64,000 bases of DNA from Gemmatimonadales bacterium (GTDB lineage Bacteria > Gemmatimonadota > Gemmatimonadetes > Gemmatimonadales > Gemmatimonadaceae): the NCBI GenBank assembly GCA_038325515.1, contig JBBQJC010000011.1, positions 6,025 to 70,024 on the forward strand, written 5' to 3'. The translations under genes and the position numbers were made by a program. Under the pieces are notes generated by a model. The model ran no database searches and was not told the origin of the DNA. It saw nothing but the letters and a program-made list of their open reading frames with translations. Below, one piece after another: positions 40,047 through 64,000 of this stretch (within the stretch, counting starts at the first letter, position 1; every line of letters starts with the position of its first letter).

Positions 40047-41666
40047 TCAGGCCAACACCGCGCGACGCGCGCGATCCTCCTCCCACTCCACGAACGGGCC
40101 GTCGAAGTCGGCGAGCCGTGTCCCGTCGAACCACCAGACGCGCGTCGCGACCTCCCGCAGGAAGGCGCGGTCGTGGCTCACCAGCAGCACCGTGCCGTCG
40201 TACTCGTCGAGCGCGTCCTCGAGCACCTCGATGTTCTCGACATCGAGATGGTTCGTCGGCTCGTCGAGCACCAGGAGGTTGGCATGCGCGAGCGTCATGC
40301 GCGCGAGCGCCATCCGCGCGCGCTCGCCACCGCTCAGCGTGCCGATCTCGCGGAGGACCTCGTCGCCGCTGAAGCCGAAGGCGCCGAGGTGGTTCTGCAC
40401 CTGGCCGCGGTTCCAGAGCGGACGCTCGTCCTGGATCGCGTCGAACATCGACTTGCGCAGCGGCAGGTCGGCCAGGTCCTGCCGGAACCAGGCAGCGGTG
40501 ATCGAGCCGCCGACCCGCGCCTGGCCGGCCGCGGGCGCGCGATCGCCGAGGATCGTCGAGATGAACGACGACTTGCCGGCGCCGTTCGGGCCGACGAGCG
40601 CGACGAAGTCGTTCCGTCGCAGCACTGCCGTGAAGCCGTCCACGAGCACGCGGTCGGGCACCTCCACGCGGAGCCCGTCGATCGCGACCACCTGGTCGCC
40701 GCCGCGCTCGGACGTCTCGAACTGGAGGCTCATCGCCGCCGGATCGCCGGGCGGCGGCGCCAGCCTCGGCAGTCGCTCCAGCCGCTTGCGCTTGCCCTTA
40801 GCCTGGAAGGAGTTCACGCCGGCGATGTTGCGGCGGATGTACTCCTCCTCCTTCTTCACGTACGCGCGCTGCTTCTCCATCTCGCGCTCGCGCGTGAGCC
40901 GCCGCTCCGCCCGCTGCGGCACGAACTGGCTGTAGTTCCCCTTGTACGTCTCGCTCGAGCGGGCCTCGACGTGCAGGATGTTCGTGCAGATCGCGTCCAT
41001 GAAGGCGCGATCGTGCGACACCACGATCACCGTCTCGTCGGCCTCGTTCAGCCAGTCCTGCAGCCAGGTCGTGGTGTCGAGGTCGAGATGGTTGGTCGGC
41101 TCGTCGAGGAGGAGCAGGTCGGCGGGGGCGATGAGCTGCGCGGCAAGCCCCACGCGCCCGCGCTCCCCCCCCGACAGCGACGACACGAGCCGTGTCTTCG
41201 ACTCCTCGGCATCGAAGCCGAGTCCCTGCAGCACCGCGTCGACGCGTGCGTGATAGACGTAGCCGCCGAGATCGGCGAACCGCTCCTGGTCGCGTCCGAA
41301 CCGTTCGAGGAACTCGCCGGTGACGCGCTCGCCCAGCTCACCGAGCTCGATCGCCTGCCCGGCGATGCGCTGTTCCAGGGCCATGACGTCGCGCCAGGCG
41401 GCGGCGCCCGCCTCCCAGACCGTGGTGGCGCCCTCGAAGGCGCGGTGCTGGTCCAGCAGGGCGTGCCGGAGTCCCGGCTTGCGCGAGACGCTCCCCACCG
41501 TGGGCTTGAGATCCCCGGTGATGATCCTGAAGATCGAGGTCTTGCCGGCGCCGTTGCGCCCGATGATCCCCCACCGCTCGCCGTCGGCGACGGTGAAGGT
41601 GATGTTCTTGAACAGTTCGGTCGCGCCGAAGGAGACGCCGACGTTGGAGACGGAGAGGAGGGTCAC
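40047..41666 (-). CDS. ABC-F family ATPase (two ABC domains, no TM domain)
   Basis: Two Walker A sites ('GRNGAGKTS', 'GPNGAGKSS'). Two signatures ('LSGGERGRV', 'LSGGERARM'). Two Walker B sites ('LLLLDEPTNHLD', 'LLVLDEPTNHLD'). Confidence 0.9.
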   Translation of the reverse strand: MTLLSVSNVGVSFGATELFKNITFTVADGERWGIIGRNGAGKTSIFRIITGDLKPTVGSVSRKPGLRHALLDQHRAFEGATTVWEAGAAAWRDVMALEQRIAGQAIELGELGERVTGEFLERFGRDQERFADLGGYVYHARVDAVLQGLGFDAEESKTRLVSSLSGGERGRVGLAAQLIAPADLLLLDEPTNHLDLDTTTWLQDWLNEADETVIVVSHDRAFMDAICTNILHVEARSSETYKGNYSQFVPQRAERRLTREREMEKQRAYVKKEEEYIRRNIAGVNSFQAKGKRKRLERLPRLAPPPGDPAAMSLQFETSERGGDQVVAIDGLRVEVPDRVLVDGFTAVLRRNDFVALVGPNGAGKSSFISTILGDRAPAAGQARVGGSITAAWFRQDLADLPLRKSMFDAIQDERPLWNRGQVQNHLGAFGFSGDEVLREIGTLSGGERARMALARMTLAHANLLVLDEPTNHLDVENIEVLEDALDEYDGTVLLVSHDRAFLREVATRVWWFDGTRLADFDGPFVEWEEDRARRAVLA

Positions 41667-49619: not shown

Positions 49620-50040
49620 CTAAACTCGCGTTTGGCGAACACCTACGTCAATTACAGAGCACGCCGAGGCGAGCCCGCGCGCGCGGCGTCGCGTCGACCA
49701 TCTCGCCGCTGACGCCAGCGCCTTGGAAGCTGGCTCGCTCGCGTGGCTGCGGACGTCGGCGCCCAGGGCGCGCACGGGGCTGCGCACGACTGTCTCGTCC
49801 GCGCAGAGCACGAGATCGCGGATGTCCTTGCGGTTGGTCAGCCGGTCGTAGCGCGGGAAGGAGTTGCTGTGCTCCTCGAGCACGAGCTGCACTCCAGACA
49901 CCACCACTCGGCGGACGTCGACCCTGGCGCCCTCCTCGCTCTCGTAGTCGGCCTCGTTGTCGAAGAGCGCCTTGCCGAGCGGCTAGGAGGAAGTGGTGAC
50001 GTAGAGGGAGCTGTTCGCTCCGCGCACGCCCGTCACGCCA
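49620..50040 (-). pseudogene. Unclassified gene remnant with in-frame TAG (49983..49985)
   Basis: One frame reads '...GVRGANSSLYVTTSS*PLGKALFDNEADYESEEGARVDVRRVVVSGVQLVLEEHSNSFPRYDRLTNRKDIRDLVLCADETVV...'. It is protein-like but lacks a start and is interrupted. Confidence 0.3.
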
Positions 50041-50238
50041 GTTCGACACGCACGAATGTATGGCTAGGTTGCGCCGCGACACCATTCATCGGCACGCATC
50101 ACTGGTGGCTGAAACGCAGGGCGCGCGGTTCTAACTCGTCGGTGTACTTGTGCAGCCTTCGTGGCCCGGATCGCGCCACCCGTGACCCGCCGCTCGCGCG
50201 AGAAGGAAGTTTACAAGAAAGCGTTGCAAGCCCCCATC

Positions 50239-50709
50239 CTAGTAGCGCCAACCCTTACGACGTAGCAGGTCTTCGATGTTACAATAGTCAATGCCGAAAT
50301 GCTGGCAAACATTCGGAATCTTAGCCGCGTTCGGCTTATGTTTCTCCTCCGTCAGGACACAGCCCCCTCGGGCCTTGGCGCGTGCGATAAGCCATGGATC
50401 GGCGACGAATCCGCCTCGAAGGATTGCGTCCTCGCTAACTAACTGTCGAAAATGCGCGATCTGAAAAAGTTCGGCGACGAAAGCCATCTCGTCTTCCGTC
50501 GGCGGTGAGAAGATCGACTTGTTGCGCTCGATCCATTCGTTGAGATGGGTGGAGTCTACCCGGCGCTGCGATTCGTGATATACCTCCTCTGCCGAGATTA
50601 GCTCCCCGTTCAGAACCAGTTGGTCGATCTCGTGCCAGAGCGTGGCGAACGTGCCTGGATAGTAGTTCTTTAGCACTCCGAGCGAATTCGTATCGATAAC
50701 AAACGTCAT
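50239..50709 (-). CDS. DUF4411-family protein (PIN-like nuclease fold)
   Basis: 'MTFVIDTNSL', 'VADPWLIARAKARGGCVLTEEKHKPNAAKIPNVCQHFGIDYCNIEDLL' matches the DUF4411 pattern as I recall it. GC about 50%. Confidence 0.85.
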   Translation of the reverse strand: MTFVIDTNSLGVLKNYYPGTFATLWHEIDQLVLNGELISAEEVYHESQRRVDSTHLNEWIERNKSIFSPPTEDEMAFVAELFQIAHFRQLVSEDAILRGGFVADPWLIARAKARGGCVLTEEKHKPNAAKIPNVCQHFGIDYCNIEDLLRRKGWRY

Positions 50710-51875
50710 TCCGCCCGCCCTCGCGAGAGCAAGAATGATTCAAATCGGTCGAGATTTCGAGCCTTCATTCGAAGGTGATCCGCTGCGTCACCGATGCCGA
50801 TTCGCCCGCTGTGGTACTGAAAAAACACCGCGCGCGCATAGGTATCGCTAAGATACGTGCCTACGTTCGCGTAGTACGAACCACCGCCCGTTCTTTCATC
50901 TTGGCGTAGGTAGTCCTCTCGCCAATGCTCGACCAAGCTGGTATAAGCTTCCGAATCAACTCGACCGGCATCAAGGAGCCGCCGGAGGACGACCTCGCGA
51001 CTGACTTTTAGGGCGCGTGCTGCACCGCTGATTCTCTCGCCAATCTGTGCGCCGCTGATTTCATCCAGATCGATGCTGCCCGGAGGAACAAGTGCCTCGG
51101 CTGCAAACCGATTGCAGGCAATCTCAATGCGCCGATCGGAGAGGGAAAGCGAGCCAAGATCGTCTTCATCCCGTGTCGTCACGCCCGAGACACCGTACGC
51201 AAGATGACCAAGTTCGTGAAGCAGCGTGAAGATCTGCCGTGTGTGGGAGGTCGCGTTGTTAATCACGACAACCGGGTATTGCGGGTCATCTAGGCAAAAC
51301 CCAGATACAGACTCCTGATCAAACGGGCGCTTGAAGACGAGAATTGCAAATCGCTCAATCGCGAAACGCCAAGCCTTGAGTGCCTCATCGGCGTTCCGCC
51401 ACTGCAGTTGCTCAGCGAGCGAAATCCCGAGGAGACTGCGAACGCGATGTGCAAGGCTCGTAGGTGTTTCACGGTGCTTTGCGCGAAGATCGGCGACTGT
51501 CCCACGAAACGACTCATCGGTTCCAGCGAACACGTCCTTGGCCGAGAGTTGCCACGCGCGTGCGTCTCGCAACGCGAACAGTGTATCTGGCTCGAGCCGC
51601 TCACGTTCAGAGTCCGGAAGCGTCCGAAATTCTGACGCGATCGATTCTTCGGTGGGTGGGGAAGGGAAAAAGAAGACGGCAAGCGGCCGCCTATAGACGC
51701 GCTGCGCCAAGTCCGCCAGCTGACGATACGTCGGCGTTTCCGATCCGTTTTCCCACGCTTCAAGGGCCTCCGCGCTTCGGCCGATAGCTTCAGCAGCATC
51801 GACCACGGTGAGACCCGCGCGAACGCGCGCCCACTGAAGCACCTTCGGATTTACGGAAGTCGCCCTGAGAACCAT
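50706..51875 (-). CDS. XRE-type HTH fused to ImmA/IrrE (DUF955/COG2856) zinc metallopeptidase
   Basis: HTH 'LQWARVRAGLTVVDAAEAIGRSAEALEAWENGSETPTYRQLADLA'. Zinc motif 'FTLLHELGHLAY'. The stop overlaps the DUF4411 start by 4 nt (ATGA). The Met at 51875 is preferred over 51959. Confidence 0.85.
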   Translation of the reverse strand: MVLRATSVNPKVLQWARVRAGLTVVDAAEAIGRSAEALEAWENGSETPTYRQLADLAQRVYRRPLAVFFFPSPPTEESIASEFRTLPDSERERLEPDTLFALRDARAWQLSAKDVFAGTDESFRGTVADLRAKHRETPTSLAHRVRSLLGISLAEQLQWRNADEALKAWRFAIERFAILVFKRPFDQESVSGFCLDDPQYPVVVINNATSHTRQIFTLLHELGHLAYGVSGVTTRDEDDLGSLSLSDRRIEIACNRFAAEALVPPGSIDLDEISGAQIGERISGAARALKVSREVVLRRLLDAGRVDSEAYTSLVEHWREDYLRQDERTGGGSYYANVGTYLSDTYARAVFFQYHSGRIGIGDAADHLRMKARNLDRFESFLLSRGRAE

Positions 51876-52069
51876 TACGCAATTTACCACGCCGGTCGCG
51901 TGGTCAATAGGTGTCAAATGGGCTCGCTGCGCGTTGATCGAGCTCAGCGACCCACCCACGGGCTATGGTCCGTTATCTGGCTTGCGCGTGCGCGCTGGCG
52001 CTCCAGAATCGCCCCAAGCTCTACCAATGCTTCCTCGATTCCGCTGATAAGCCCCTCAGCCCCCATAAC

Positions 52070-54031
52070 CTACGGCGACATCATCGGCGCCAATCGAATC
52101 CCTCGCAACGCACCCAAGCCCCTCACATCCACCGGCACCACCCCGCCCGGATCCGCCATCGTCCACGGCGCCGGCACCGGATCCACCCCCATCACGACAG
52201 CGCGCTGCCCGAACAACGCCGCCGTCAACGAATGCAGCGCCCGATGCCTCCACGCCGCCGCCTTCACCTCCATGGCCAGCAGCAGATACGCCGCATCCTC
52301 GAACGACGGCACAGTATCCGCCGGCGAGACACCACAGTAGCTCTGCGTCGACGCCCACGCGCACCCATGCCCCACCCCGAGCGTGTGCATCGCCTCGTGA
52401 ATCAACACGCTCTGCTGCAGCGCTCCGACGGCTGAAGGGTTGTACCCGATCACCTGCGCCTGCGACATCGTGTTGCTCACCGTGATGTGATCCACGGCCG
52501 ACCCGCGCCACCCGGTCACCACGAAGTCCTGCAGCATCAGCACAGCCGGCGACGTGATCCCGGTGCCGATCGCCCCGGTACCCCCACCTCCAGTTACCGC
52601 ACCGCGCAACAGCGAGTCGAACTGGAAGATCAACATCCGGTTGGGCGTCGTCCCCGACACGCGATCGGTCCTGTACCCATCCTGGTCGTTGACGGGCTTC
52701 CAGATCTGGAACCCCAGCGTGTTCTGTACAGTGGCCAGCGCCCGCATCACCTGCACCGAATCGTCCGCGGCCACCTTGCGCGCCGAGCAGCAGGCGCGAT
52801 GGATCGCCACGTTGATGGGAAAGCTGTCGGGCAGCCAGAACATCTCCGCCGCCGAATACGTGTTCTGCAGCTTCGGCGCCGCACCCCCTGACGTAATGGG
52901 GGCCTTCTGCACCCCGCTCGTGAACAGATACGACGGCCCGGTATGCGTCGACGCCGACATCGCGGCATCGAGGTTCACCGCAAGCGTTCGCCCCGCGTAG
53001 ATCCCGCGCGTCACGCGATACTGTGTCGGCACGAGGATGAAGCTGACGTCGGCGTTGATGTCGGAGCCGACACAGTTGGGCAGCGCGCGCACCGAGCAGT
53101 CGGTCGCCACGGGCATCAGCGCCGGAAACCACGCGCGCCCGCTCTTGCTCACTGCATCGATCAGCACCTCGCTCGCCCATCCTGTCGCGTGCGTGGTCAG
53201 CTTGAGCCGGTACGTTCCCGCGGCGCTCACGTCGGCGCTGTCGGTCACGCTCCCGTTGCGCGAGTACGCACGCAACGGCGGCAGGGCGGATCCGTCATAC
53301 GTCCACACCGCGCCGTGCAGCACGCGAAAGAACTCGACGCGCACTGAATCCTTGGGAATGTTGAGCGGACCGGTTGTCGCCACAGCCCACGTGGTGCCGT
53401 CTCCCCTGCCCACGAGCGCCCCGCTGGCGATCCGCACGGCGACCGCCGTGTCGCGCACGAGGAGGCTCGGCGATCCGGCCAGCACTGTCCCCTTGGTGTC
53501 CTTCACCGTTGCCGCCACGCTCACCGTGTCGCCCACGTACTGCTTGGTGGCGCTCGGCGCGAATGCGATCGACCCGATGGGCACAGTTCCGCTGAACGTC
53601 GCGGGCTTGGCGACACGCGCGCTGGTCACGGTGAGCTGCTGCGACTCGGTAGTTGGGCCGAGCGTCCACAGCGCGAACGCTCGGCCAAGGCTGTCGGTAC
53701 TGGCGGCGACGACCCTCACGCTCCCGCCCCCGGACGCGACGGTCCAGGTCACTGGCTCACCCTTTGCCGGCACGCCGAGCGAGTCGGCGAGCTTCACGAC
53801 CATCGCGTCGGTGGGCGTGTCCCCCGCCGGCAGCGACTGCGACACGGCGCTGAGGATAGTCATCGCCAGCGGCCCCGGCGCGGGTGGCGTCGGTGTGGTC
53901 GGGGTCGTCGGCGTGGTGGGGGTGGTCGGCGTGGCCGGGGTCGATGGCGTCGTCGGCCCCCCGCCCTCCCCGCCGCAGGCCGCGAGGGTGAGGGCTGCCG
54001 CGACTGCCCGCGCCGTGCTCGTGAGACGCAT
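52070..54031 (-). CDS. Lipoprotein with Pro/Thr linker, Big-like Ig domains and a C-terminal metzincin-type zinc protease motif
   Basis: 'AAALTLAACGG' lipobox. 'PTTPSTPATPTTPTTPTTPTTPTPP' linker. 'VTWTVASGGGSV' and 'QQLTVTSA' are Ig-like. 'VLIHEAMHTLGVGHG' gives HExxHxxGxxH. Confidence 0.75.
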   Translation of the reverse strand: MRLTSTARAVAAALTLAACGGEGGGPTTPSTPATPTTPTTPTTPTTPTPPAPGPLAMTILSAVSQSLPAGDTPTDAMVVKLADSLGVPAKGEPVTWTVASGGGSVRVVAASTDSLGRAFALWTLGPTTESQQLTVTSARVAKPATFSGTVPIGSIAFAPSATKQYVGDTVSVAATVKDTKGTVLAGSPSLLVRDTAVAVRIASGALVGRGDGTTWAVATTGPLNIPKDSVRVEFFRVLHGAVWTYDGSALPPLRAYSRNGSVTDSADVSAAGTYRLKLTTHATGWASEVLIDAVSKSGRAWFPALMPVATDCSVRALPNCVGSDINADVSFILVPTQYRVTRGIYAGRTLAVNLDAAMSASTHTGPSYLFTSGVQKAPITSGGAAPKLQNTYSAAEMFWLPDSFPINVAIHRACCSARKVAADDSVQVMRALATVQNTLGFQIWKPVNDQDGYRTDRVSGTTPNRMLIFQFDSLLRGAVTGGGGTGAIGTGITSPAVLMLQDFVVTGWRGSAVDHITVSNTMSQAQVIGYNPSAVGALQQSVLIHEAMHTLGVGHGCAWASTQSYCGVSPADTVPSFEDAAYLLLAMEVKAAAWRHRALHSLTAALFGQRAVVMGVDPVPAPWTMADPGGVVPVDVRGLGALRGIRLAPMMSP

Positions 54032-54175: not shown

Positions 54176-56944
54176 ATGGAGCCACTTGCCGCGGACGGTC
54201 CACGGGTCTCGTTTCTCGGCGGCGCGTCGATCCAGGTGGGCGGCGTCCCCATCGGCGGGCGGGCGACGCACCGGCATCCCCTCGCCCTGCTCGCCCTCCT
54301 CGCCGCGAGCCGGGGCCGCCCGCTCACGCGCGACAAGCTCATCGCCCTCCTCTGGCCGGAGCGCGACGCCGACGCCGCCCGCAACCTGCTCAAGGTCGCC
54401 GTCCACGAGCTCCGCAAAGCGCTCGGCGACGACGCGATCCGCACCACGGGCGACCAGCTCAGCGCCAACCTCGCCGCCCTCTCCTGCGACGTCTGCGACT
54501 TCGCCGCCGCGCTCGACCGTGGCGACGACGGCGCCGCCGCCGAGTGCTACGCCGGCCCCTTGCTCGACGGCTTCTTCCTCAAGGACGCGACGGACTTCGA
54601 GCGCTGGGCCGACGGCGAGCGCGCTCGGCTCGGCAACCTTTTCGCTGGCGCCCTCGAGCGGCTGGCTGTCGCGGTCGAGCAAGCCGGTGACGCCGACGCC
54701 GCGGTGCGCTGGCGACGGGCGCATGCGGCGCACGAGCCGTACAGGCCCGACGTGGCCGACCGCCTCATCCGTGCCCTCGCCGCCGCCGGCGACCGCGCCG
54801 GCGCGATACGGGCTGCCGAGTCGTTCGCGGCACGTCGGCGCGCCGACCTGGAGATCACCGACGACCACGACATCGTCGCGATGGCGCGCGGGCTGGCGAG
54901 CGGGTATGTGCCGCCTCCCCCCGCCCCTTCACGCGAGCGTGACGCGAGCACTTCTGCGCGGAACTCTTCACAGCCCCGCGAGGCGCAGCCTTCGCGCGCA
55001 GGGGCAGTGTCAGTCGCCACAGCCGTTCCGCGCCGCAGACGCAACTCGCGCTGGCTCGCCGGCGTTGCAACGGTCGTCGCGCTCGCCGCCGTGGCTCTCG
55101 TCGCCGCTCGGCGCGCGCGGACTCCCGCCGGCGATCGTGTCGTCGTCGCGCCATTCCACGTCGTCGGCCGCGACTCCTCGCTCGGCGACGCGCTCGTCAC
55201 ACTCCTCTCGGCACGCTTCTCCGGCGACGACGCGCCAGGTGCCGGTGCAGCGAGTCGCGTGGCCGGCGAGATAGTCAGCGCCGCCGACTCGGTCGTCGTC
55301 ACCGCGCGCCTGTACTCCGCGAGCGACTCCGTTCCCATCGCCAGCGCGCGCGTCGACGCTGCAAGTGGCGCGTCCCCCGCGCGCATCGCCGACCGGCTGG
55401 CGATCGAGCTGATGGCACGCGCCGCCGGCGAGCCGGACGATCACGTCGCGATGCTCCTCGCGCGCCCCCTGCTGCCGGCGCGCACCTTCATCGCCGCGCA
55501 GCTCGCGTACCGCGCGGCGCGCTACGCGCGCGCCGAGAGCCTCTACGTGCGCGCGCTCGACGCCGACTCGGCGTTCGCCGCGGCGGGGCTCGGGCTCGCG
55601 CTGGCGAACAGCTGGACAGGGATCAGCGGCAACTATGGCGTCGGCCGCGATGCGGTGCTCCATCATCTCGGCGCGCTGAGCCAGCGCGACCGCGCCTTCG
55701 CCCGCGCCTTCTTCGGCCCCGATCCCGCGCTCGGTCCGCCCCGTCCCGCCCCCGTGTATCTCGCCGCGTGGGAGGATGTCGTAGAGCGCTGGCCCGACTG
55801 GACCGAGGCCTGGTACCAGCTGGGCGACCGCTACTATCACCTTGGCGGCGTGTCGGGGCTTGCCGACGCGGGCGACCGCGCGCGCCTCGCCTTCCGTCGC
55901 GCGCTGCAGCGCGACCCGAGCTTCGCCGCGCCGCTGCACCATCTCGTGGAGCTGTACGCGGCGCGGCGTGAGCTGCCCGAGCTGCGCGACGCGGGCGCTC
56001 GCTACTTCGCCGCCAACCCGTCGGTCGCGCGCGACAGCTCGGCCATCGGCTGGGAGATGGCCGCGGCACTCGGCGACGCTGCCTGGCTGGCGCGGCTGCG
56101 GGCGGCGTTCGACGCGATGCCGCGCGAGGACCTCGCACGCATCGCCTGGGTGACCGACGCCAACGGCTGGCCGCGCGGAGATGCCGAGCGATCGGCATCC
56201 CTTCTCGAGCGAAGGGCGAGCGTGACGAGCGAGCGGGAGCGGGCGTTGATGCTGGAGTGCGCGCTGCGGCTCAATGGAGGGCAGCCGTTAAGGGCACGGG
56301 AGGCGGCATCGCGGCTCGGGGCGCTGTTTCCGGGCAGGCCTGTGGCGGCGCTGTGGGATCTGTTCGCGGCGCTGTTCGGCGATGGAGATCCGGTGCTGGC
56401 CCAGTCGGCCGCGTCGGGGCTGGCGGTCTTCGCGCGGGGGAGTGTGCCGCGCGATCATGTGGCGCGGGACCAGCATCATCTGGCGGCGTGTCTGTATGGG
56501 TACTGGAGCGCCTCGCGTGGCGATCTTGCTACAGCTGGTGTCGTGGTTTCTCGCCTGCGGGAGGCGATGCGTGCCGAAGACAACAACTTCGCGCGGCGGA
56601 ATGGCGAAGTGTGCCTGGCGATGCTCTCGGCGTCGGTCGCGGTGCGCTCGCGCGCTCCCGATGCGCCGGTGCTCGTCGCGCGGCTGGATACGCTGCTGCT
56701 GCGCGAGCGGGTGCCGCCACACGCGATCCTCGAGGCGGGGACCATCGTAGCGGCGCGGCTGCATGCGTCGCTCGGCGATACGGCGGCGGCTCTGGTCGCG
56801 GCGAGAAGGCGGGAGCATCTCACCGGGGAGCCGTTCTTTCTGGCGACGCAGTTGCGGGAGGAGGCTCTTTATGCGCGCGCCCTCGGCGATGCGGATGGGG
56901 CGGCGCGAGCGCAGGCGCATCTGAGGGCGTTGCGGGGGCGGTGA
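54176..56944 (+). CDS. SARP/AfsR-like regulator: OmpR-type winged helix + BTAD domain, one TM segment, large TPR-like C-terminal region
   Basis: 'RHPLALLALLAASRGRPLTRDKLIALLWPERDADAARNLLKVAVHELRKALG' (winged helix). 'CDFAAALDRGD...AECYAGPLLDGF' (BTAD). TM segment 'WLAGVATVVALAAVALVAA'. Confidence 0.8.
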   Translation: MEPLAADGPRVSFLGGASIQVGGVPIGGRATHRHPLALLALLAASRGRPLTRDKLIALLWPERDADAARNLLKVAVHELRKALGDDAIRTTGDQLSANLAALSCDVCDFAAALDRGDDGAAAECYAGPLLDGFFLKDATDFERWADGERARLGNLFAGALERLAVAVEQAGDADAAVRWRRAHAAHEPYRPDVADRLIRALAAAGDRAGAIRAAESFAARRRADLEITDDHDIVAMARGLASGYVPPPPAPSRERDASTSARNSSQPREAQPSRAGAVSVATAVPRRRRNSRWLAGVATVVALAAVALVAARRARTPAGDRVVVAPFHVVGRDSSLGDALVTLLSARFSGDDAPGAGAASRVAGEIVSAADSVVVTARLYSASDSVPIASARVDAASGASPARIADRLAIELMARAAGEPDDHVAMLLARPLLPARTFIAAQLAYRAARYARAESLYVRALDADSAFAAAGLGLALANSWTGISGNYGVGRDAVLHHLGALSQRDRAFARAFFGPDPALGPPRPAPVYLAAWEDVVERWPDWTEAWYQLGDRYYHLGGVSGLADAGDRARLAFRRALQRDPSFAAPLHHLVELYAARRELPELRDAGARYFAANPSVARDSSAIGWEMAAALGDAAWLARLRAAFDAMPREDLARIAWVTDANGWPRGDAERSASLLERRASVTSERERALMLECALRLNGGQPLRAREAASRLGALFPGRPVAALWDLFAALFGDGDPVLAQSAASGLAVFARGSVPRDHVARDQHHLAACLYGYWSASRGDLATAGVVVSRLREAMRAEDNNFARRNGEVCLAMLSASVAVRSRAPDAPVLVARLDTLLLRERVPPHAILEAGTIVAARLHASLGDTAAALVAARRREHLTGEPFFLATQLREEALYARALGDADGAARAQAHLRALRGR

Positions 56945-56952
56945 GCGGCCTC

Positions 56953-57068
56953 TGTCATCCCGCGTGAGCGCAGCGCCCCTGTCATCCCGCGCGAGCGCAG
57001 CGCCCCTCTCATCCGGCGCGAGCGCAGCGCCCCTGTCATCCCGCGCCAGCGCAGCGAGCGTCGGGATC
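56953..57068 (+). repeat. REP-like element expanded into an array: three 27-nt half-units plus one full palindromic unit (57034..57068)
   Basis: Units are tgtcatcccgcgtgagcgcagcgcccc / tgtcatcccgcgcgagcgcagcgcccc / tctcatccggcgcgagcgcagcgcccc / tgtcatcccgcgccagcgcagcgagcgtcgggatc. The array starts 9 nt after the regulator stop. Confidence 0.85.
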
Positions 57069-57318
57069 TCCCCGAACAACAACGTAGTCCGGGACCACGG
57101 AAGCACCTGGACATACGGCGCGAGCACCAATCGTTCAAGCGTGGCGCGATTCCGCCCGCTCCGGCGCGCAGCTCCGCGGCGACGACCGCGCTCAGATGTA
57201 GGCCGGCCGCGGCCTGAGACGAGAATGTTTCCAGAGCAGCTCGCCGCTCGGCGTCGTGTGTGGCGTCGATGAAGCAGCTCGTTTCCAGAATGTACTTTCT
57301 CAGCTTCCGGGCGGGCAC
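57069..57318 (-). pseudogene. VapC-like PIN toxin remnant (frameshifted, 3' end replaced by REP array)
   Basis: GTG at 57318, then 'RKYILETSCFIDATHDAERRAALETFSSQAAAGLHLSAVVAAELRAGA'. The continuation 'LERLVLAPYVQVLPW...' is only in another frame. The reading frame then runs into the REP units. Confidence 0.45.
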
Positions 57319-57326
57319 GCGAGCGC

Positions 57327-57479
57327 TCAGTCGAGGCGGGTCAGCGCGAGGCCGCGAAGGGCGCGCGCGCCGGCGGCCAGGTCGCGCCGGAACGCCACGA
57401 GCTCGAGGGCGACTTCCACAGTCTCGCGCTCGGTGGCCGTTCCGAGAAACGCCTGCGCCGCGCCGTCCAGTCCGTACGG
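57327..57479 (-). pseudogene. VapB-like (DUF2191-type) antitoxin remnant preceded by in-frame TAG
   Basis: 'PYGLDGAAQAFLGTATERETVEVALELVAFRRDLAAGARALRGLALTRLD*'. TAG at 57480..57482 removes the N-terminus, and there is no start codon. Confidence 0.4.
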
Positions 57480-57649
57480 CTACAACGTCAGCCCGTCGTC
57501 GGCGGCGTCCCTTTTTCGCCAGCACCTGCGTAAACGGAGCCGCGATTCGCGGCGCTCGGCCGGCGAGCCGAAGCGGTTGGCGCGCCGCCCGCTCGCGATC
57601 GCATGCGCTGCGCGCCGGGACTGGCCCCCAGGCCAGCCCCGGCGTGCGT

Positions 57650-58003
57650 CTAAAGGCCCGCCGTCTTCTTGAGCTGCATGATCGCCATGCCGACGGCGCT
57701 GGAGGCGGTCGCGAAGCCGCTGCCCAGTGCGAGCATCGCCTCGGCGTCGTCGTACCGCTTGGCATTGATCGCCGATGCCACCTTGCCCGCTTCGGCGTGG
57801 AACGCGGCGTGCTTCGCCAGGCACTCGGCATGGCTCGCCGTCTGGCCGTACTTCGTCTTCGCCTCGCCGTGCAGCCACTGGCCGAGCTCGCAGGCGTTGT
57901 CCTTCGCGATGGTTGCGGCGTCCATCGTCTCCTTCTTCGTGATCGCCGCACGCAGCTTCACCTTCCACTCGGCGTGCTTGCCGATCGCATTGTCGAGATC
58001 CAT
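57650..58003 (-). CDS. Stand-alone CZB (chemoreceptor zinc-binding) domain protein
   Basis: 'HAEWKVKLRAAI', 'CELGQWLHG' and 'HAECLAKHAAFHAEAG' give the His/Cys zinc-ligand pattern of CZB. Confidence 0.75.
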   Translation of the reverse strand: MDLDNAIGKHAEWKVKLRAAITKKETMDAATIAKDNACELGQWLHGEAKTKYGQTASHAECLAKHAAFHAEAGKVASAINAKRYDDAEAMLALGSGFATASSAVGMAIMQLKKTAGL

Positions 58004-58348
58004 GGGTCGCTCCTGGCGTGAGTTGTCGATGCGCTTTACAGGAAGATCGGCCGCCAGGTGCGCGCGCTAAGTAGGGAGGATTACTGAAGTCGTGTGGGGA
58101 AGATCGCCCGGCGTGGATGAACAGCGCTCCCAGCAGCAGGTAACGCGCGCATGAGGCTCACGCATGGGCACGTCGTGCGAGAGCTGCGACGCCGCCCGGA
58201 GCAGCGACAGAACGACGGTCTCCTTCCGCAGACACCAGATCGCGAGCGACCAGGGCGAGGCGGGCGATCCACGAATTTGCTTGCACCCTGGCGAGCGCCG
58301 CTCCACCTTCGTCGGGCTATTTCCGATGTGGAGCACTTACGCCCGCGC

Positions 58349-58354
58349 AAGGAG
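58349..58354 (+). promoter_or_regulatory. Shine-Dalgarno sequence (AAGGAG) for the long form of lanA
   Basis: AAGGAG, then an 8-nt spacer (cagaacaa), then the ATG at 58363. Confidence 0.5.
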
Positions 58355-58362
58355 CAGAACAA

Positions 58363-58848
58363 ATGCCTGCAATGGACGAGGAGGAGGGACGGCCTGCTGC
58401 TGCTGAACCGATCGCCGACGAAAGTGATACGAGGCGCGAGGCGCTGAAGCGAGTCGGACTCGCGGCCGCGGGTCTGGCGGCCGCATCGCTGTTGCCGTTC
58501 GGATCGAGCGCTCACGGCGCGAGCCTGCCGACGGGCATGGCTGACGACGAGGACTTCGAGGAGAGGGTCGTCATGCGCGCATTCAAGGACGACGCATTCC
58601 GCAAGCGGCTCCTCGCCGATCCGCGGCGGGCCGTCGCCGAAGTGCTGGGCAAGGATTTCCCCGCTGGCATCGACATCAAGGTCGTTCAGGAGTCGCCGAC
58701 CACGGTCTACCTCGTGCTGCCCGCTGCCGAGCCGGCCACGCGGGTGAGGCCAGGCGGCACAGGCGCCCCCGGGCTCCCCTTCCACAGCCGGTGGCGCTGT
58801 TGCAATCACGACCTCACCTGCACGAGGAAGGGCAGGCCGGCGGGATGA
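58363..58848 (+). CDS. lanA: Lanthipeptide precursor with NHLP (nitrile hydratase-like) leader domain; the long form has an N-terminal Tat-like signal
   Basis: 'FEERVVMRAFKDDAFRKRLLADPRRAVAEVLGKDFPAGIDIKVVQESPTTVYLVLPAAEP' matches the NHLP leader pattern. 'RPGG' is followed by the Cys/Ser/Thr-containing tail 'TGAPGLPFHSRWRCCNHDLTCTRKGRPAG'. lanM lies 81 nt downstream. An alternative start is Met59 at 58537. Confidence 0.8.
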   Translation: MPAMDEEEGRPAAAEPIADESDTRREALKRVGLAAAGLAAASLLPFGSSAHGASLPTGMADDEDFEERVVMRAFKDDAFRKRLLADPRRAVAEVLGKDFPAGIDIKVVQESPTTVYLVLPAAEPATRVRPGGTGAPGLPFHSRWRCCNHDLTCTRKGRPAG

Positions 58849-58929
58849 GTTGACACCGGTATCTCTCGGCGGCGCCGCCGCGTTCGTCGGCCGCCGAGGA
58901 TACTGCCGGTCAGCGCGAGACGCCTGTCC

Positions 58930-61900
58930 ATGACGTCTCCTCGGACCGACGCGGATCTCCGCGCGCTCGTCGAACGCGCCAGCTCGCGCGGAGAGCGGCT
59001 CGATCCCCTCTTCGGCACGAGCGACGCACCGCTCCCCGCTTGGACGAGCACCCTCCTCGGAGCCCTCGATGTGGCGGCAGCGCTCGCGAATCCCTCCGGC
59101 GCCACGGCAGATCGTGCCCTCGCTTCCGGCGAAGTGCTGCCGTTCGAGGAGATCGTGCTCCCGTTCGTGATACAGGCGCGCGCGATGCTGCCCTCCAGAG
59201 TGGTCGAGACCCACCTTTCGCCCGCCGCGTGGGCCACGCTCGAGCGCGCGTTGCTACGACAGCTCGTAGGTCTGTTCATGCGCCCGCTCTACGCGGAATT
59301 CGCGGCGCTGCGCGCTACGCGGCGGTCGGCATTCTCCCGGCTGCTGGCGCGTGAGGGCTCGGACAGCGAGTATCGCGCGTTCGTGGCGCGGATGCACTCC
59401 GGCGGTCTGGCCCTGCTCCTCGCTGAGCTCCCCGTCCTGGCGCGCGCCGCCGCGCAGGCGACCGACCAGTGGCTCGAGACCACCGTCGAATTTCTCGGTC
59501 GGCTCGCCGCCGATCGCACCGCGATCGCGGCGGCGTGCTCGCCCCACGCCCACCCCGGTGAGGTCGTCGCCGTCATGACTGGGTTGTCGGACGCCCATCA
59601 TGGCGGCAGGACCGTGGCCGAAGTGCGGTTCGCCTCGGGGCTGCGCGTCATCTACAAGTCGAGAGATGTCGGAATCGAGCAGGCCTTCTTCGCCCTGCTC
59701 GCCTGGCTGAACGGGCACAGCGGCCTGCTCCCCCTGCGCGAGCTGCTCGTGCTCGAGCGCCCGGGCTATGGCTGGCTGGAGTTCGTCGATCATCTGCCCT
59801 GCACCAGCGAGGCAGAGGCCGATCGCTACTTCCGGCGCGCCGGGATGCTCCTCGCCCTCGTCTACGCGCTGGGCGGCGATGACTGCCATGGCGAGAACGT
59901 CATCGCGTCGGGTGAGCATCCCGTCCTGGTCGATCTCGAGACGATCATGCGCCCCATTCCCCCCGATGCGTCGAGCCCCCCGCCCGGCGCGGATGCGCAG
60001 TTTCTTGCTCGGCTGCGCTTTCAGGACAGCGTCCTCGGCACGGGCTTCCTGCCGCGCTGGGAGACCGACAACGAGAGCGGCAGCATCGACGTCAGCGGAC
60101 TTGGCGGTGAGGTGGAGCAGACGAGCATCGACCACTTTCCCCGCTGGGCCAACGTCAATACCGATCGCATGAGCCTGGAGTACGCGCTCGGAGACGTGTC
60201 CCCGGCCGAGAACGTTCTTCGACTCGGGGACCGCCCGCTGCCGGTGGCATCGTACGCGGACTCCCTCATCGAGGGCTTTCGCTCGATGTACTCGCTCATC
60301 CTGTCGCAACGCGACGCGATGCTCGCGCCGGATGGCCCGCTGGGCGCGTTCGCCAACCACACCGTCCGCTTCGTGCTTCGCTCGACGCACGTCTACGCCA
60401 GGACCCTCGAGGCCAGCCTCGATCCCGCGGTGTTGCACGACGGTGCGCGGCGGAGCATGGAGCTCGACGTCCTGCGCCGCTCGCTCGGCCCGGACCTCGA
60501 CCCGCGGGCGCTGGCCACGCTTCACAGGGCCGAGCAGGCGGCGCTCGAGTCGTTCGACGTCCCGCACTTCTCCACCTCGGCTGCTTCCCGGTCGCTCACC
60601 CTCGGCGATGGCCTCACGCTCGTCGATTACCTGGAGCAGTCACCATTCGACCGCTCCATCGCGCGAATCCGTGGACTCGATCGCGATGACCTCGACGTGC
60701 AGGTCGCCTTCATCCGTGCCGCGCTGCTTGCCTCCGTTGCCGTGGATGCCGGGATGGAGGGAAGTGACGATATGCTCGACGACGATACGCCGATGTCGCG
60801 CGAGGACTTGATCTCGGCAGTCCGCGCGATCGCCACCCAGCTCCACGCGACGGCGATCCGCTCTCCCAACGGGAGCGCGAGCTGGATCGGCCTGGGATTC
60901 CTTCCCCTGGCGCAACGGTTCCAGCTTCAGCCCATTCGCGGCGATCTCTATAGCGGCGTCGCGGGTATCGCGGTCTTTCTCGCCGCGCTGGAACAGGTGA
61001 CGGGAGAGGCCGGGCACGCGCTCGCGCTGAGCGCGCTGCTGCCCCTGCGACGGGATGTCTCGCACCACGGTGACGACCTCGCCCGGAGCGTGGGGATCGG
61101 AGGCGCGACGGGACTCGGGTCGATCGTGTACGGATTCGTTCACACCGCGAGACTCCTTCGCGACCCCTCTCTGCTCGAAGACGCGCGAAGCGCCGCCGCG
61201 CTGATCTCGCTCGACCTGATCGCCAGCGACGTGGCGCTCGACGTCATCGCCGGCGCCGCGGGAGCTCTGCTCGGCCTGTTGGCGCTGCACGACGCGACGC
61301 CGGAGCCGTGGGTGCTGGAGCGCGCCATCGCCTGTGGAGAGCATCTCGTTCGGCAGCGGATCGAGATGCCCGACGGCCGGCGCGTGTGGCAAACGATACC
61401 TGAGGAATCGCCGCTGACCGGCTTCGCGCACGGCGCCGCGGGAATTGCCTACGCGCTGCTTCGCCTGTCGGCGCAGGCCGGCCCCTCCGAGTCATCTGCA
61501 TTCGAGGCTGCCGCGATCGATGGGATCGCCTACGAGCAGAGCCTGTTCGTGCAGGGCTCGCGCAATTGGCCCGATGTGAGAGAGCCCCTCGGCGCCGATG
61601 GACAGCCCGTCTGCCGCACCGCCTGGTGTCACGGTGCGCCGGGCATCGCTCTCGCACGTCTCGGTGGACTGGCGTCGCTCGACACACCCGGCGTGCGAGC
61701 CGACGTGGACGCCGGACTGGAGACGACGCTGCGGTTCGGTGTGGGAGCCTTCGATCATCTCTGCTGCGGCGGGGCGGGCCGCATCGACGCACTCATCGAA
61801 GGCGCGCGCCGGCTGCACCGCCCCGAGCTGCTCGACGCCGCCAATCGACTGGCCGCACGCATGGTGCGTCGGGCGCGGCGAGCCAGCGGCTATGCCACAC

Positions 61901-62016
61901 AGGGCGGCAATGGTTCCGTCTCGCCCGGGCTCTTTCACGGCACAGCGGGGATCGGCTACACGCTGCTGCGTCTCATCGCCCCCGACGCGCTGCCCTCGGT
62001 CCTGCTCTGGGAGTGA
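58930..62016 (+). CDS. lanM: Class II lanthipeptide synthetase LanM (DUF4135 dehydratase domain + LanC-like cyclase domain)
   Basis: 1028 aa. 'GLSDAHHGGRTVAEVRFASGLRVIYKSRD', 'YGWLEFVDH', 'DCHGENVIASGEHPVLVDLE' (dehydratase/kinase-like region). Cyclase motifs 'SGVAGIAVFL', 'GFAHGAAGIAYAL', 'AWCHGAPGIALARL', 'HLCCGGAGRID', 'GLFHGTAGIGYTLLRL'. Confidence 0.92.
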   Translation: MTSPRTDADLRALVERASSRGERLDPLFGTSDAPLPAWTSTLLGALDVAAALANPSGATADRALASGEVLPFEEIVLPFVIQARAMLPSRVVETHLSPAAWATLERALLRQLVGLFMRPLYAEFAALRATRRSAFSRLLAREGSDSEYRAFVARMHSGGLALLLAELPVLARAAAQATDQWLETTVEFLGRLAADRTAIAAACSPHAHPGEVVAVMTGLSDAHHGGRTVAEVRFASGLRVIYKSRDVGIEQAFFALLAWLNGHSGLLPLRELLVLERPGYGWLEFVDHLPCTSEAEADRYFRRAGMLLALVYALGGDDCHGENVIASGEHPVLVDLETIMRPIPPDASSPPPGADAQFLARLRFQDSVLGTGFLPRWETDNESGSIDVSGLGGEVEQTSIDHFPRWANVNTDRMSLEYALGDVSPAENVLRLGDRPLPVASYADSLIEGFRSMYSLILSQRDAMLAPDGPLGAFANHTVRFVLRSTHVYARTLEASLDPAVLHDGARRSMELDVLRRSLGPDLDPRALATLHRAEQAALESFDVPHFSTSAASRSLTLGDGLTLVDYLEQSPFDRSIARIRGLDRDDLDVQVAFIRAALLASVAVDAGMEGSDDMLDDDTPMSREDLISAVRAIATQLHATAIRSPNGSASWIGLGFLPLAQRFQLQPIRGDLYSGVAGIAVFLAALEQVTGEAGHALALSALLPLRRDVSHHGDDLARSVGIGGATGLGSIVYGFVHTARLLRDPSLLEDARSAAALISLDLIASDVALDVIAGAAGALLGLLALHDATPEPWVLERAIACGEHLVRQRIEMPDGRRVWQTIPEESPLTGFAHGAAGIAYALLRLSAQAGPSESSAFEAAAIDGIAYEQSLFVQGSRNWPDVREPLGADGQPVCRTAWCHGAPGIALARLGGLASLDTPGVRADVDAGLETTLRFGVGAFDHLCCGGAGRIDALIEGARRLHRPELLDAANRLAARMVRRARRASGYATQGGNGSVSPGLFHGTAGIGYTLLRLIAPDALPSVLLWE

Positions 62017-62354
62017 CCGCTCGGCGAAGGGTGCCCCTGGCGTGGAGAACACCGCAAGAGCTCCCGCTTTTCCCACCGTGCCAACACGCTCGCCCGCTCG
62101 GACGTTTGCGGACGTGCCCACTTCGAGGCCCCGAATTCCGGGTTGCATCCTGCGCTTGGCCTGACGCTGGTTCTGGCCGTTGAGGTATTCGCCCCGAGGA
62201 CGACGTGCACGAGTCGCTGCTGCACTCGCGGAGGATCGACATCTGCTTCCGGGGCAGCGACTTCCTGCAGCGGCTCGCGTGGGAGAAGCAGGGGGCTCCG
62301 GTGGCGGCAGCGGGCAGATAGGCGCTCGACAGGTCCGCGAGACGCCGGCGCGCG

Positions 62355-63275
62355 TCAGGCGCTCGCCCCCTCGGCAAGCTGCGCGGCACATTCCTCCCGG
62401 ACGCACCCGCGCAGCCACCGGTGCGCCGGATCGGCGTCCATGCGTGGATGCCAGAGCAGGGAGACCGTGATCTCCGGCAACGACACCGGAAGGGGAAAGC
62501 TGAACATCCCGACGCGCAGCTTCCCGGTATGCCGCTCGGGCACGCTGGCGATCAGGTCGGACGCGCGCGCCAGGGCCAGCGCCGCGGAGAACCCGCCGAC
62601 GATCGTGGCGATCCTCCGCTTGAGCCCGAGCGGCTTCAACAGCGCGTCGATCGGCCCCTCCTCCAGCCCGCGCCGAGAGGCGAGGACGTGCCGGCCGGCC
62701 GCGTAGCGGGCGGCGGTGATCCTCCCCCTGCTCAGCGGATTCCCCTGCCGCACGACGCCGACGAACCGGTCCCTGAACAGGCCGTGTGCGCGGATCTCGG
62801 GACTCATCGCCTCCCCTTTCCCCACGACCCCCACTTCCAGGTCGACGCGCCCGTCGCGCAGCGGCGCGCTCCCTCTGTCCCCCCTGCTCGTGAAGCGCAA
62901 CCGCACGCCCGGCGCCGCTCCGCCCACGCGCGCGATGAGCCCCGCTCCGAAGTTCTCCACGAAGCCCTCGCTCGCGCGCAGCGTGAACGTCCCGACGAGC
63001 CGATCCAGCTGGAGCCGCTCGGCGGGGCGCAGGATGGCGTGCGCCTCCTGCACCACCTGGCCAACCCGATCGCGGAGCTCGAGCGCCCGAGGGGTGGGCA
63101 CGAGACCGCGACCCGCCCTCACCAGCAGCGGATCGCCCGTCGTGTCGCGCAACCGCGCCAGCGCGCGGCTCATCGCCGAGGGGCTGAGCCGCAGCCGCCG
63201 CGCCGCGCGCGCGACGCTGCCTTCGGCGAGCAGCACGTCGAGAGTGGTGAGCAAGTTGAGGTCGTGCGTCGGCAT
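62355..63275 (-). CDS. LysR-family transcriptional regulator
   Basis: Start 'MPTHDLNLLTTLDVLLAEGSVARAARRLRLSPSAMSRALARLR' (LysR HTH). Divergent from the MFS gene. Confidence 0.85.
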   Translation of the reverse strand: MPTHDLNLLTTLDVLLAEGSVARAARRLRLSPSAMSRALARLRDTTGDPLLVRAGRGLVPTPRALELRDRVGQVVQEAHAILRPAERLQLDRLVGTFTLRASEGFVENFGAGLIARVGGAAPGVRLRFTSRGDRGSAPLRDGRVDLEVGVVGKGEAMSPEIRAHGLFRDRFVGVVRQGNPLSRGRITAARYAAGRHVLASRRGLEEGPIDALLKPLGLKRRIATIVGGFSAALALARASDLIASVPERHTGKLRVGMFSFPLPVSLPEITVSLLWHPRMDADPAHRWLRGCVREECAAQLAEGASA

Positions 63276-63414
63276 GAATCCCCCGCGGCGGGTGTGATCG
63301 GCATACATGGCGTTCGACGCACGAATACAATGCGTTCGGTGCGCGTTCCGCCATGGCTCGCGCGGCACTACCCTCGTACATGCTCCAATCCCGGAGCCAT
63401 CCCAGGGGGAGCCC

Positions 63415-64000
63415 ATGCCGACACGAATCATCGAACCAGCTGGCGGATCAGAGTCCGGCGAGGCGACGCTGTCGCCGCCGGTACGGTGGGCGCTGGCCAG
63501 CCTCTCGCTGTCCATGCTCATGCCGTCGCTCGACACGAGCATCGCCAACGTGGGCCTGCCGACGCTGGCCCAGGCGTTCGGCGCCTCCTTCCAGGCCGTG
63601 CAGTGGATCGTCCTCGCCTACCTCCTCGCGATCACCACCCTGATCGTCAGCGCCGGGCGACTCGGCGACATCGTCGGCCGCAGGCGGTTGCTGCTGTTCG
63701 GCATCGGCTTGTTCACGGCGGCCTCGCTGCTGTGCGGCGTCGCACCCACCCTCTCGCTGCTCGTCGCCGCGCGGGCGGCGCAGGGACTCGGCGCGGCGAT
63801 CATGATGGCCCTCACCATGGCCCTCGTCGGCGAGACCGTTCCCAGGGAGAGAACCGGCAGCGCGATGGGGCTCCTCGGGACGATGTCCGCCATCGGCACC
63901 ACGCTCGGCCCGTCGCTCGGCGGCGTCCTGATCGCCGCCTTCGGCTGGCGGATGATCTTCCTCGTCAACCTGCCGCTGGGTATCCTGAATCTCCTGCTCG
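63415..64000 (+). CDS. MFS transporter, DHA2 (EmrB/QacA-like) family; 3' end outside the window
   Basis: My own translation from the ATG at 63415: '...LSMLMPSLDTSIANVGLPTLAQAFGASFQAVQWIVLAYLLAITTLIVSAGRLGDIVGRRRLLLFG...AARAAQGLGAAIMMAL...'. It stays open to the window end. Confidence 0.85.
   Translation, partial: MPTRIIEPAGGSESGEATLSPPVRWALASLSLSMLMPSLDTSIANVGLPTLAQAFGASFQAVQWIVLAYLLAITTLIVSAGRLGDIVGRRRLLLFGIGLFTAASLLCGVAPTLSLLVAARAAQGLGAAIMMALTMALVGETVPRERTGSAMGLLGTMSAIGTTLGPSLGGVLIAAFGWRMIFLVNLPLGILNLLL

Follow-up and report, generated by a model that had tools for sequence, protein, structure and literature searches.

A two-gene NHLP/LanM lanthipeptide locus whose precursor appears to carry a twin-arginine signal ahead of its leader

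INTRODUCTION

Lanthipeptides, and peptides made on the ribosome and modified after translation (RiPPs) generally, are thought to need a dedicated exporter, and the NHLP leaders of some precursors derive from the sequence of the nitrile hydratase alpha protein (NHase-alpha). The twin-arginine translocation (Tat) system exports proteins after translation and in the folded state, and its signals follow the consensus S/T-R-R-x-F-L-K, in which the RR pair is invariant. Here we analysed a 64-kb stretch of contig JBBQJC010000011.1 (the window, to which all coordinates refer unless a locus is named), in which a precursor gene, lanA, is followed by lanM, the gene of a class II lanthipeptide synthetase, and in which the N-terminal part of the precursor looks like a Tat signal placed before an NHLP leader. 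A plain minimal lanA-lanM pair is routine; the conserved, predicted Tat signal before the NHLP leader is what is new. Related proteins and loci are referred to below by P and L numbers.

Prochlorosin-type systems (ProcM/SyncM with Nif11 or NHLP precursors) resemble the window locus in having a bifunctional LanM with a three-Cys zinc site of the CCG type, a long protein-derived leader and biosynthetic genes that often lie without an adjacent transporter. The CCG motif is a hallmark of ProcM-like LanM enzymes (PMC10783134). Prochlorosin systems, however, have many hypervariable precursors per enzyme, whereas the window holds one, the single NHLP gene found by a six-frame hmmsearch of the 64 kb with the family profile, and its core is conserved across relatives; further precursors were sought in the same search and rejected as none appeared, so that the ProcM trait of one enzyme with many hypervariable substrates was not found within the window. 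Moreover, the prochlorosin leader ends in a double Gly that is cut by a C39-peptidase ATP-binding cassette (C39-ABC) transporter, whereas in the window family the leader mostly ends in a degenerate x-G and a putative Tat signal stands at the N-terminus. The association with C39-ABC/ABC/HlyD export genes (TIGR03794/6/7) that the cited part of Haft 2010 gives as a trait of the NHLP family was likewise not seen in the 64-kb window. Our literature search found no report of an N-terminal Tat signal in the prochlorosin-type family.

The DprE/DprM pair and the OspM/MppM-type LanMs, as presented in the relevant sections of PMC12537861, share with the window an NHLP leader of the same predicted fold and a class II LanM. 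In those sections the dpr cluster encodes additional tailoring enzymes and four transporters, of which one contains a C39 peptidase domain, whereas the window module has none of these; unlike the dpr-type NHLP pairs, the window precursor has a predicted signal peptide. Signal peptides on bacterial RiPP precursors are called ‘highly unusual’ in the cited passages of PMC12452194, where those described so far are of the Sec type and belong to bufferins and oxazolins. According to the same passages, these MNIO-modified peptides resemble the window locus in using a general-secretion signal in place of a dedicated exporter, in their small core gene sets and in their conserved Cys motifs; the difference is that there a Sec signal replaces the typical leader and the MNIO enzyme oxidizes Cys, whereas here a putative Tat signal is added before an NHLP leader that is itself complete, and the modifying enzyme is a LanM. 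Fusions of signal peptides to lanthipeptides (Kuipers 2006, as cited in the part of PMC5686179 used here) also combine cytoplasmic modification with general secretion, but they are laboratory constructs, while the window locus is an apparently natural and conserved version.

RESULTS

A minimal lanA-lanM pair

The features of the module are as follows.

58349-58354, + strand: Shine-Dalgarno (SD) sequence AAGGAG of lanA, 8 nt before the start codon, read from the sequence
58363-58848, + strand: lanA, precursor of 161 aa with an acidic N-terminal tail, a putative Tat signal, an NHLP leader and a Cys-rich core
58363-58521, + strand: signal region of lanA (aa 1-53), with acidic n-region, RR motif, Ala/Gly-rich stretch and cleavage region
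58549-58731, + strand: NHLP leader domain (aa 63-123), from TIGR03793 (62.8 bits), an AlphaFold2 model and structural matches
58783-58845, + strand: conserved core segment HSRWRCCNHDLTCTRKGRPAG (aa 141-161), from comparison with P0150 and P0241
58857-58905, + strand: GC-rich stem-loop without a U-tract in the lanA-lanM spacer, from the spacer folding energy
58930-62016, + strand: lanM, class II lanthipeptide synthetase of 1028 aa, from TIGR03897 and motif alignment
about 59431-60576, + strand: dehydratase domain of lanM
about 60934-62007, + strand: LanC-like cyclase domain of lanM, with CCG-type zinc site C900, C945 and C946

An earlier note on this DNA had proposed a minimal class II lanthipeptide locus, made up of one NHLP-type lanA and a lanM without transporter, protease or immunity genes beside them, and this proposal passed all the tests that we ran. 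The precursor gene, the gap of 81 nt (58849-58929) and the 1028-aa LanM all lie where the note had placed them. The LanM profile TIGR03897 and the LANC_like domain, on which that proposal depended, were both found: TIGR03897 matches LanM over its full length with 840.4 bits (cutoff 304), and the Pfam domains are DUF4135 (PF13575) at aa 168-549 and LANC_like (PF05147) at aa 669-1026. For the precursor, the TIGR03793 match lies above its cutoff of 50.9 bits, and Pfam NHase_alpha matched as well. The GC content at third codon positions (GC3) is 0.80–0.83 in the lanA and lanM open reading frames (ORFs), as is typical of genes. We have very little doubt that this is a genuine NHLP/LanM lanthipeptide module. 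The two genes are presumably co-transcribed. The spacer between them folds with a minimum free energy of −40.1 kcal/mol (z = −1.8), which is non-significant taken alone, and spacer hairpins recur in related loci, with a perfect stem of 29 bp and z = −8.7 in L019; the stem-loop may be a transcript stabiliser or an attenuator.

In one respect the earlier reading was incomplete, though not wrong: the first ∼53 residues of the ORF that it had drawn from 58363 make up a twin-arginine signal region that it overlooked, and this changes the meaning of ‘no transporter’.

The N-terminal extension of the precursor

The signal stretch of lanA reads ESD-T-R-R-E-A-L-K-R-VGLAAAGLAAASLLPFGSSAHGA-SLPTG-M59. 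It starts with an acidic n-region (aa 1-22, net charge −7), followed by the twin-arginine motif T23-R-R-E-A-L-K29 (58429-58449), an uncharged Ala/Gly-rich stretch that begins at V31, and a region of small residues suited to cleavage, SSA/HG/A, at aa 48-53. TIGR01409 (TAT_signal_seq) matches aa 23-50 with 18.3 bits, marginally above its cutoff of 16.7. The RR pair is invariant in all 17 long relatives (153–173 aa), whose motifs are of the form xRRx[LMVI][LM]K or the near-canonical [STN]RRSFIAK, with RRDFLK or RRTFLR in some. By pattern-level tests, the RR pair is followed by 17–30 uncharged residues rich in Ala, Gly, Ser and Thr with a mean Kyte-Doolittle hydropathy of 0.8–1.55, and then by cleavage-type sites, which are ASA or ALA in the relatives. 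Among 21 aligned members, including the 17 long ones, ten match TIGR02811 (the formate-dehydrogenase Tat-target model), three match TIGR01409 and one matches MelC1, each of which is a model of Tat signals. Taken together, residues 23-53 look like a Tat signal peptide. Anchoring as a lipoprotein was considered and rejected, a lipobox-like GC being present in just two relatives (P0145 and P0146) and not conserved.

Several features of the DNA bear on whether the extension is made as protein. In seven of seven aligned loci the long ORF has its ATG kept in register, with a purine-rich SD-like motif (AAGGA, AAAGG or GAGAGG) at the same distance before it, while before the ATG at 58537 (Met59) no SD comparable to AAGGAG is present. 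Moreover, GC3 over the signal-coding segment 58429-58536 is 0.83, equal to that of lanM. Judged by its SD, its conserved start and its GC3, the N-terminal extension is translated.

Folded leader and conserved core

An AlphaFold2 model built on the family alignment was confident for the NHLP domain only (mean predicted local distance difference test scores of 79–93 per 10-residue block over aa 61-120) and showed three helices and a hairpin. The best PDB matches to the modelled leader were the nuclear magnetic resonance structures of the NHLP proteins DprE2 (9cjx) and SrpE (8tb1), with probability 1.00 and a template modelling score of about 0.6. For one such leader, DprE2, PMC12537861 reports a rigid structure that melts at 67 °C. 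The model thus predicts a folded NHLP leader in the window precursor. Downstream of it, GG is present at aa 131-132, as it is in the subfamily relatives P0150 (VEGG) and P0241 (PTGG), off the aligned position at which the leaders of the family end; this end is mostly A-x-G, with or without the signal, and VAGG occurs only in P0002 and P0200.

The core of lanA is SRWRCCNHDLTCTRKGRPAG. Its last 21 residues are identical at 18 positions to those of P0150 (HSRWRCCNHDLTCTRKGRPAG versus RSRMRCCNHDLTCTHKGRPAG), and seven of the identical core residues are specified by different codons in the two genes. P0150 is the closest relative of the precursor and is about 48% identical to it overall and about 50% in the leader; P0241 shares SRWRCCDH, which gives a common motif S-R-[WM]-R-C-C-[ND]-H. 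The core of the larger subfamily is different (FTRSWFRxCPCRCSSLSVC). The identity of the core to that of P0150, with its synonymous codon changes, indicates purifying selection on it, and a conserved core behind a diverging leader, the opposite of what is seen in prochlorosins, points to a specific function and to selection that still acts on the window gene. A single Ser (Ser142) lies N-terminal to the conserved pair Cys146/Cys147, and thus one lanthionine ring is the minimum expectation; Thr152, Cys153 and Thr154 could form further rings. We also considered a frameshift that hides a canonical leader end (LSDxELExVAGG) or another core, and rejected it: after VLP the other frames contain a stop or are not peptide-like, and P0150 has the same core in the same frame. 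A close relative of P0150, P0195, has the same signal and leader with a Cys-free tail rich in Pro and Ser, and probably represents a frameshifted or decayed core.

Catalytic residues and zinc site of LanM

Residues of CylM that mutagenesis has shown to be important (PMC4550811) were mapped by alignment to the CylM structure 5dzt. D252/H254 correspond to D221/H223 of the window LanM, K274 to K243, D347/H349/N352/D364 to D318/H320/N323/D335, and R506/T512 to R480/T486. Across 33 relatives, each of these nine mapped catalytic positions is either invariant or conserved to at least 90%. The cyclase motifs are FAHGAAG (H834), WCHG (C900) and HLCCGG (C945, C946), so that the dehydratase and zinc-cyclase motifs that the earlier note had recognised are all in place. 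HLCCGG aligns to SLCHG of LicM2 (6st5), which would make the third zinc ligand a Cys; in the same set of relatives C945 never varies, and C946 is retained in at least 90%. The nature of the zinc ligands, which the note had left as a point to check, thus comes out as the three-Cys CCG site of ProcM-like enzymes. By every sequence criterion tested, the window enzyme belongs to the LanM family and to its CCG subgroup, and it would be expected to catalyse dehydration and thioether formation on LanA.

The window LanM lacks an N-terminal segment of ∼55 aa (region 58930-59100; consensus LLxxWRxLIAxGDxxxFxRRLAWDGLD) that is kept in nearly all aligned relatives; P0023 lacks part of it, and its start is possibly mis-called. 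A tblastn search for the missing 55 aa found no remnant in any frame, which indicates a clean in-frame deletion and excludes a frameshift as the cause of the shorter protein. The alignment to the TIGR03897 core model starts at aa 74, and the segment that is lost falls N-terminal of this model.

Recurrence of the two-gene module

The closest relatives of the window LanM are 51–65% identical to it, and where the contig reaches upstream of their genes, precursors of 159–172 aa with the same N-terminal extension were found. When these precursors were used to seed a profile search, about 20 precursors from metagenomes were obtained, 17 of them the long ones described above, which share the four-part architecture of the window lanA; the window gene is thus one of about 20 metagenomic examples, none of which comes from a cultured organism. 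In L003/L004, L005/L006, L009 and L010 a lanA of the Tat-NHLP type is followed after about 85–95 nt by lanM, whereas the flanks share no relationship; wherever the contig is longer, the partner is a CCG-type LanM. No transporter or protease was found within 10 kb of lanA-lanM in L003, L005, L009 and L010, and C39-ABC/ABC/HlyD export genes (TIGR03794/6/7) were absent within 10 kb in these four loci and in L019. The LanM most similar to the window enzyme (65% identity) is encoded in L002, a locus that is truncated where lanM begins and that has a DrrA-like ABC pair downstream.

In a search of 1.84 billion representative proteins with hidden Markov models (HMMs), 6065 NHLP-like matches were obtained, and about eleven of the best 150 align from the signal region onward. 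One of these, P0244, has an RRTFLR signal and an unrelated core. Another, P0236, is a marine protein of 264 aa in which the signal (RRDFLK) is followed by two NHLP domains in tandem and by a core rich in Cys; after 119 nt comes a LanM of the CCG type with 42% identity to that of the window. The outcome of this search indicates that the combination of Tat signal and NHLP leader is rare yet recurrent in several lineages. The P0236-LanM locus itself (L019 1742-5903, from a TARA marine metagenome) has a DDE transposase and a BlaR/BlaI-like pair upstream. A search of metagenome contigs for more loci returned only the contig already known and three weak NHLP matches, and a scan of genome contigs gave one small contig of a metagenome-assembled genome, labelled Micropepsaceae.

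When the 653-aa lipoprotein, the SARP regulator, the CZB protein and the LysR protein encoded near the module were searched by tblastn against all fetched loci, no homologue was found. Hence a conserved accessory gene beside the module was rejected, as these four window neighbours, within about 6 kb, had no match in the fetched loci; the shared lanA-lanM pairing amid unrelated flanks indicates that the conserved unit is the two-gene module. The small ORFs that flank the other loci are also unrelated, apart from one non-coding block common to subfamily A. This block, GGCCAAGGCT..GGACAATCACGAAG.TCTACC, lies about 30–70 nt upstream of lanA in L003, L005, L007 and L009 and is absent in the window; it may be a site for a promoter or regulator.

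Genes of the same LanM clade also occur without the signal: lanA genes lacking it are found at L015 4590-4916 and L017 6001-6330, with their own SD at the equivalent of the long-ORF start. Five metagenomic full-length NHase-alpha-like proteins (P0007, P0177, P0178, P0182 and P0183) carry N-terminal twin-arginine signals. As in the window precursor, an RR signal is followed by NHase-alpha sequence; unlike it, these proteins keep the CTLCSC metal site, lack a Cys-rich tail and have no known LanM context. Precursors of the Tat-NHLP type may have evolved from proteins of this kind.

Neighbouring genes and the rest of the window

The following genes flank the module.

57650-58003, − strand: CZB gene (PF13682), divergent, upstream of lanA
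62355-63548, − strand: LysR gene, downstream of lanM
from about 63300, + strand: MFS gene, divergent from the LysR gene
54176-56944: SARP/BTAD-TPR regulator of 922 aa, upstream of the module
52070-54031, − strand: predicted lipoprotein of 653 aa, 4.3 kb upstream of lanA

The surroundings agree with the earlier description of a divergent CZB gene upstream and of some 340 nt of non-coding or remnant DNA before a LysR/MFS pair: the 338 nt 3′ of lanM have no coding signal (GC3 of the best frame is 0.73, versus ∼0.83 in genes), and the LysR gene and the divergent MFS gene follow. The absence of a C39-ABC transporter, LanP and LanFEG, which had been noted for 4 kb on either side, extends further. 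Among the ORFs of the 64 kb scanned with Pfam, which were those passing a GC3 filter plus two from a lower-GC3 gap, so that some lower-GC3 stretches and short ORFs lie outside the scan, no C39-peptidase ABC transporter, subtilisin/LanP, LanFEG-type ABC protein or Tat component was found, and the sole ABC protein (40047-41666) is of the ABC-F type and has no membrane domains. The 653-aa lipoprotein has an LAAC lipobox, a Pro/Thr-rich linker, a weak match to Big_1 and, near its C-terminus, HEAMH, an HExxH motif. It matches no peptidase family and has no counterpart in the related lanA-lanM loci; an HExxH lipoprotein 4.3 kb upstream nevertheless qualifies the statement that there is no protease. 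Neither Rfam families nor tRNAs were found in the whole window, and a scan of 57600-62500 for promoters and terminators gave no convincing candidate. That the lineage is poorly explored, as had been suggested earlier, is consistent with a search of a collection of 15 billion proteins: five of ten window proteins tried were present there as exact sequences, and each of the five was alone in its 90%-identity cluster.

Directly after the stop of the SARP/BTAD-TPR gene, at 56948-57056, a 27-nt unit, GCCCCTGTCATCCCGCGCGAGCGCAGC, is repeated in four tandem copies with 91% match. At ∼57060-57340 on the − strand lies a frameshifted remnant of a PIN-domain (VapC-like) gene, whose two joined fragments score 26.2 bits on PF01850, with a possible small antitoxin-like frame just upstream on the same strand. 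The region 50000-52000 has a GC content of 0.58, versus about 0.70 elsewhere, and the ORF 50706-51959 (− strand) encodes an HTH_31 plus Peptidase_M78 (ImmA/IrrE-type) protein; this region is possibly a mobile-element or prophage remnant. The window further encodes two extracytoplasmic function-type sigma factors with a C-terminal DUF6596 domain (9289-10554, − strand, and 23108-24370, + strand), DinB-family proteins, a pyrroloquinoline quinone dehydrogenase (25908-28259), a DUF899 protein and a PpoB2 copper chaperone, all of which are typical accessory content of a soil bacterium.

DISCUSSION

The gene content, the domain and motif assignments, the conservation of signal and core and the recurring two-gene arrangement are observed, and on them we base a model in which the LanM-modified precursor is exported by Tat, which we regard as probable, with moderate confidence. 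The Tat dependence, order of events, cleavage sites, ring pattern and biological role that we infer would be as follows. In the cytoplasm, the ProcM-like LanM with its three Cys zinc ligands would bind the NHLP leader, phosphorylate Ser and Thr residues of the core and eliminate the phosphate, and the Cys thiols would then be added to form (methyl)lanthionine rings, with one conserved ring candidate from Ser142 to Cys146 or Cys147. Because Tat works post-translationally on folded proteins, the general Tat translocon, rather than a LanT reserved for it, could take over the modified precursor with its folded leader. Signal peptidase I would cut near residues 50-53 and release an NHLP-core product outside the cytoplasmic membrane, that is, in the periplasm if the host is Gram-negative, as the relatives suggest. 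There the leader might be removed by an unlinked protease or be kept attached. The Tat signal may thus stand in for the missing dedicated transporter. Such a route has been anticipated for engineered systems: in the passages of PMC5686179 that concern secretion, Urban et al. argue that the Sec pore copes poorly with cyclised lanthipeptides, being considered too narrow and too fast for them, and speculate that Tat ‘might present an alternative’ that serves better than Sec, with longer residence in the cytoplasm together with the Lan enzymes.

Several observations weigh against this model. The Tat assignment rests on HMM matches near threshold and on pattern rules, which is a weakness, and the n-region of 22 residues, with a net charge of −4 to −7 in most members, is in our own judgement, made without a reference set, atypical for a signal peptide. 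No tat genes were found among the scanned ORFs of the window. The double-Gly leader end is degenerate in most members, LanM has lost ∼55 aa at its N-terminus, and in the window subfamily one Ser precedes the Cys pair, which makes the extent of ring formation uncertain. Moreover, the sister precursors P0002, P0142 and P0143 have no Tat signal. Their genes adjoin those of close LanM relatives from the same clade, and at the equivalent place they have either a genuine stop upstream or an SD of their own; this suggests that the signal-coding segment has been cleanly gained or lost within one LanM clade. No transporter was found near the sister loci either. Hence the lack of a linked transporter is not specific to Tat-bearing genes, and an unlinked exporter is possible.

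The last point leads to the best-surviving alternative, which we consider unlikely, namely that the locus is a ProcM-like NHLP lanthipeptide pair of the ordinary sort, with its transporter and protease encoded elsewhere, and that the extension has no role in export but could be an extra part of the leader to which LanM binds or an anchor in the membrane that holds the precursor close to the enzyme. The equally minimal Tat-less loci speak for this explanation, and NHLP and Nif11 precursors are often unlinked from ABC/HlyD export genes in the accounts of Haft 2010 and PMC10783134 drawn on here; the unusual acidic n-region and the TIGR01409 score barely over the cutoff fit it as well. However, an invariant RR pair, the motifs [STN]RRSFIAK, RRDFLK and RRTFLR in independent sublineages, an uncharged Ala/Gly-rich region and small-residue sites are the defining features of Tat signals, and they are hard to account for as enzyme-recognition elements. 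Recognition of NHLP precursors by LanM, as far as the cited sections of PMC12537861 describe it, involves the NHLP nucleus and its C-terminal tail.

Decay of the locus, with LanM inactivated by its clean in-frame deletion and lanA left as a relic, is improbable in our view. The deletion itself speaks for decay, as does a linker between leader and core that differs from that of the family, but both ORFs are intact with gene-like GC3, all catalytic residues of LanM are retained, the lost segment lies outside the TIGR03897 core model, and the core identity to P0150 with its synonymous changes argues for continued selection. A true start at Met59, which lies directly before the NHLP domain, would give a precursor of typical size (103 aa) and would agree with a GC3 of just 0.5 over the first 22 codons, leaving the Tat-like stretch as an untranslated chance resemblance, is so improbable, given the SD and ATG conserved at the long start, the GC3 of the Tat part and the conservation of the extension as protein in 17 relatives, that we rule it out.

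Returning to Tat export of a LanM-modified precursor, our literature search found no description of a natural RiPP precursor with a Tat signal. We tentatively suggest, as a serious possibility, that these proteins form a previously undescribed natural class of RiPP precursor, in which a Tat signal precedes a folded NHLP leader and export relies on the housekeeping Tat system without a dedicated transporter. The product may keep its NHLP domain and be a secreted ‘lanthiprotein’ of ∼100 residues, whose conserved tail, rich in Cys, His and Arg, would serve a specific purpose in the periplasm, for instance metal binding or signalling, and would not act as a hypervariable antibiotic. If the model is true, a natural Tat-routed lanthipeptide would show how a cell guarantees that modification comes before export, because Tat acts post-translationally and on folded cargo, and it would explain the recurring ‘orphan’ two-gene lanA-lanM loci. 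It would also offer a natural template to engineers who wish to secrete cyclised peptides from Gram-negative hosts, a route on which phage-display work has speculated. Genome-mining tools that trim or ignore the N-terminal extensions of precursors can overlook export signals of this kind.

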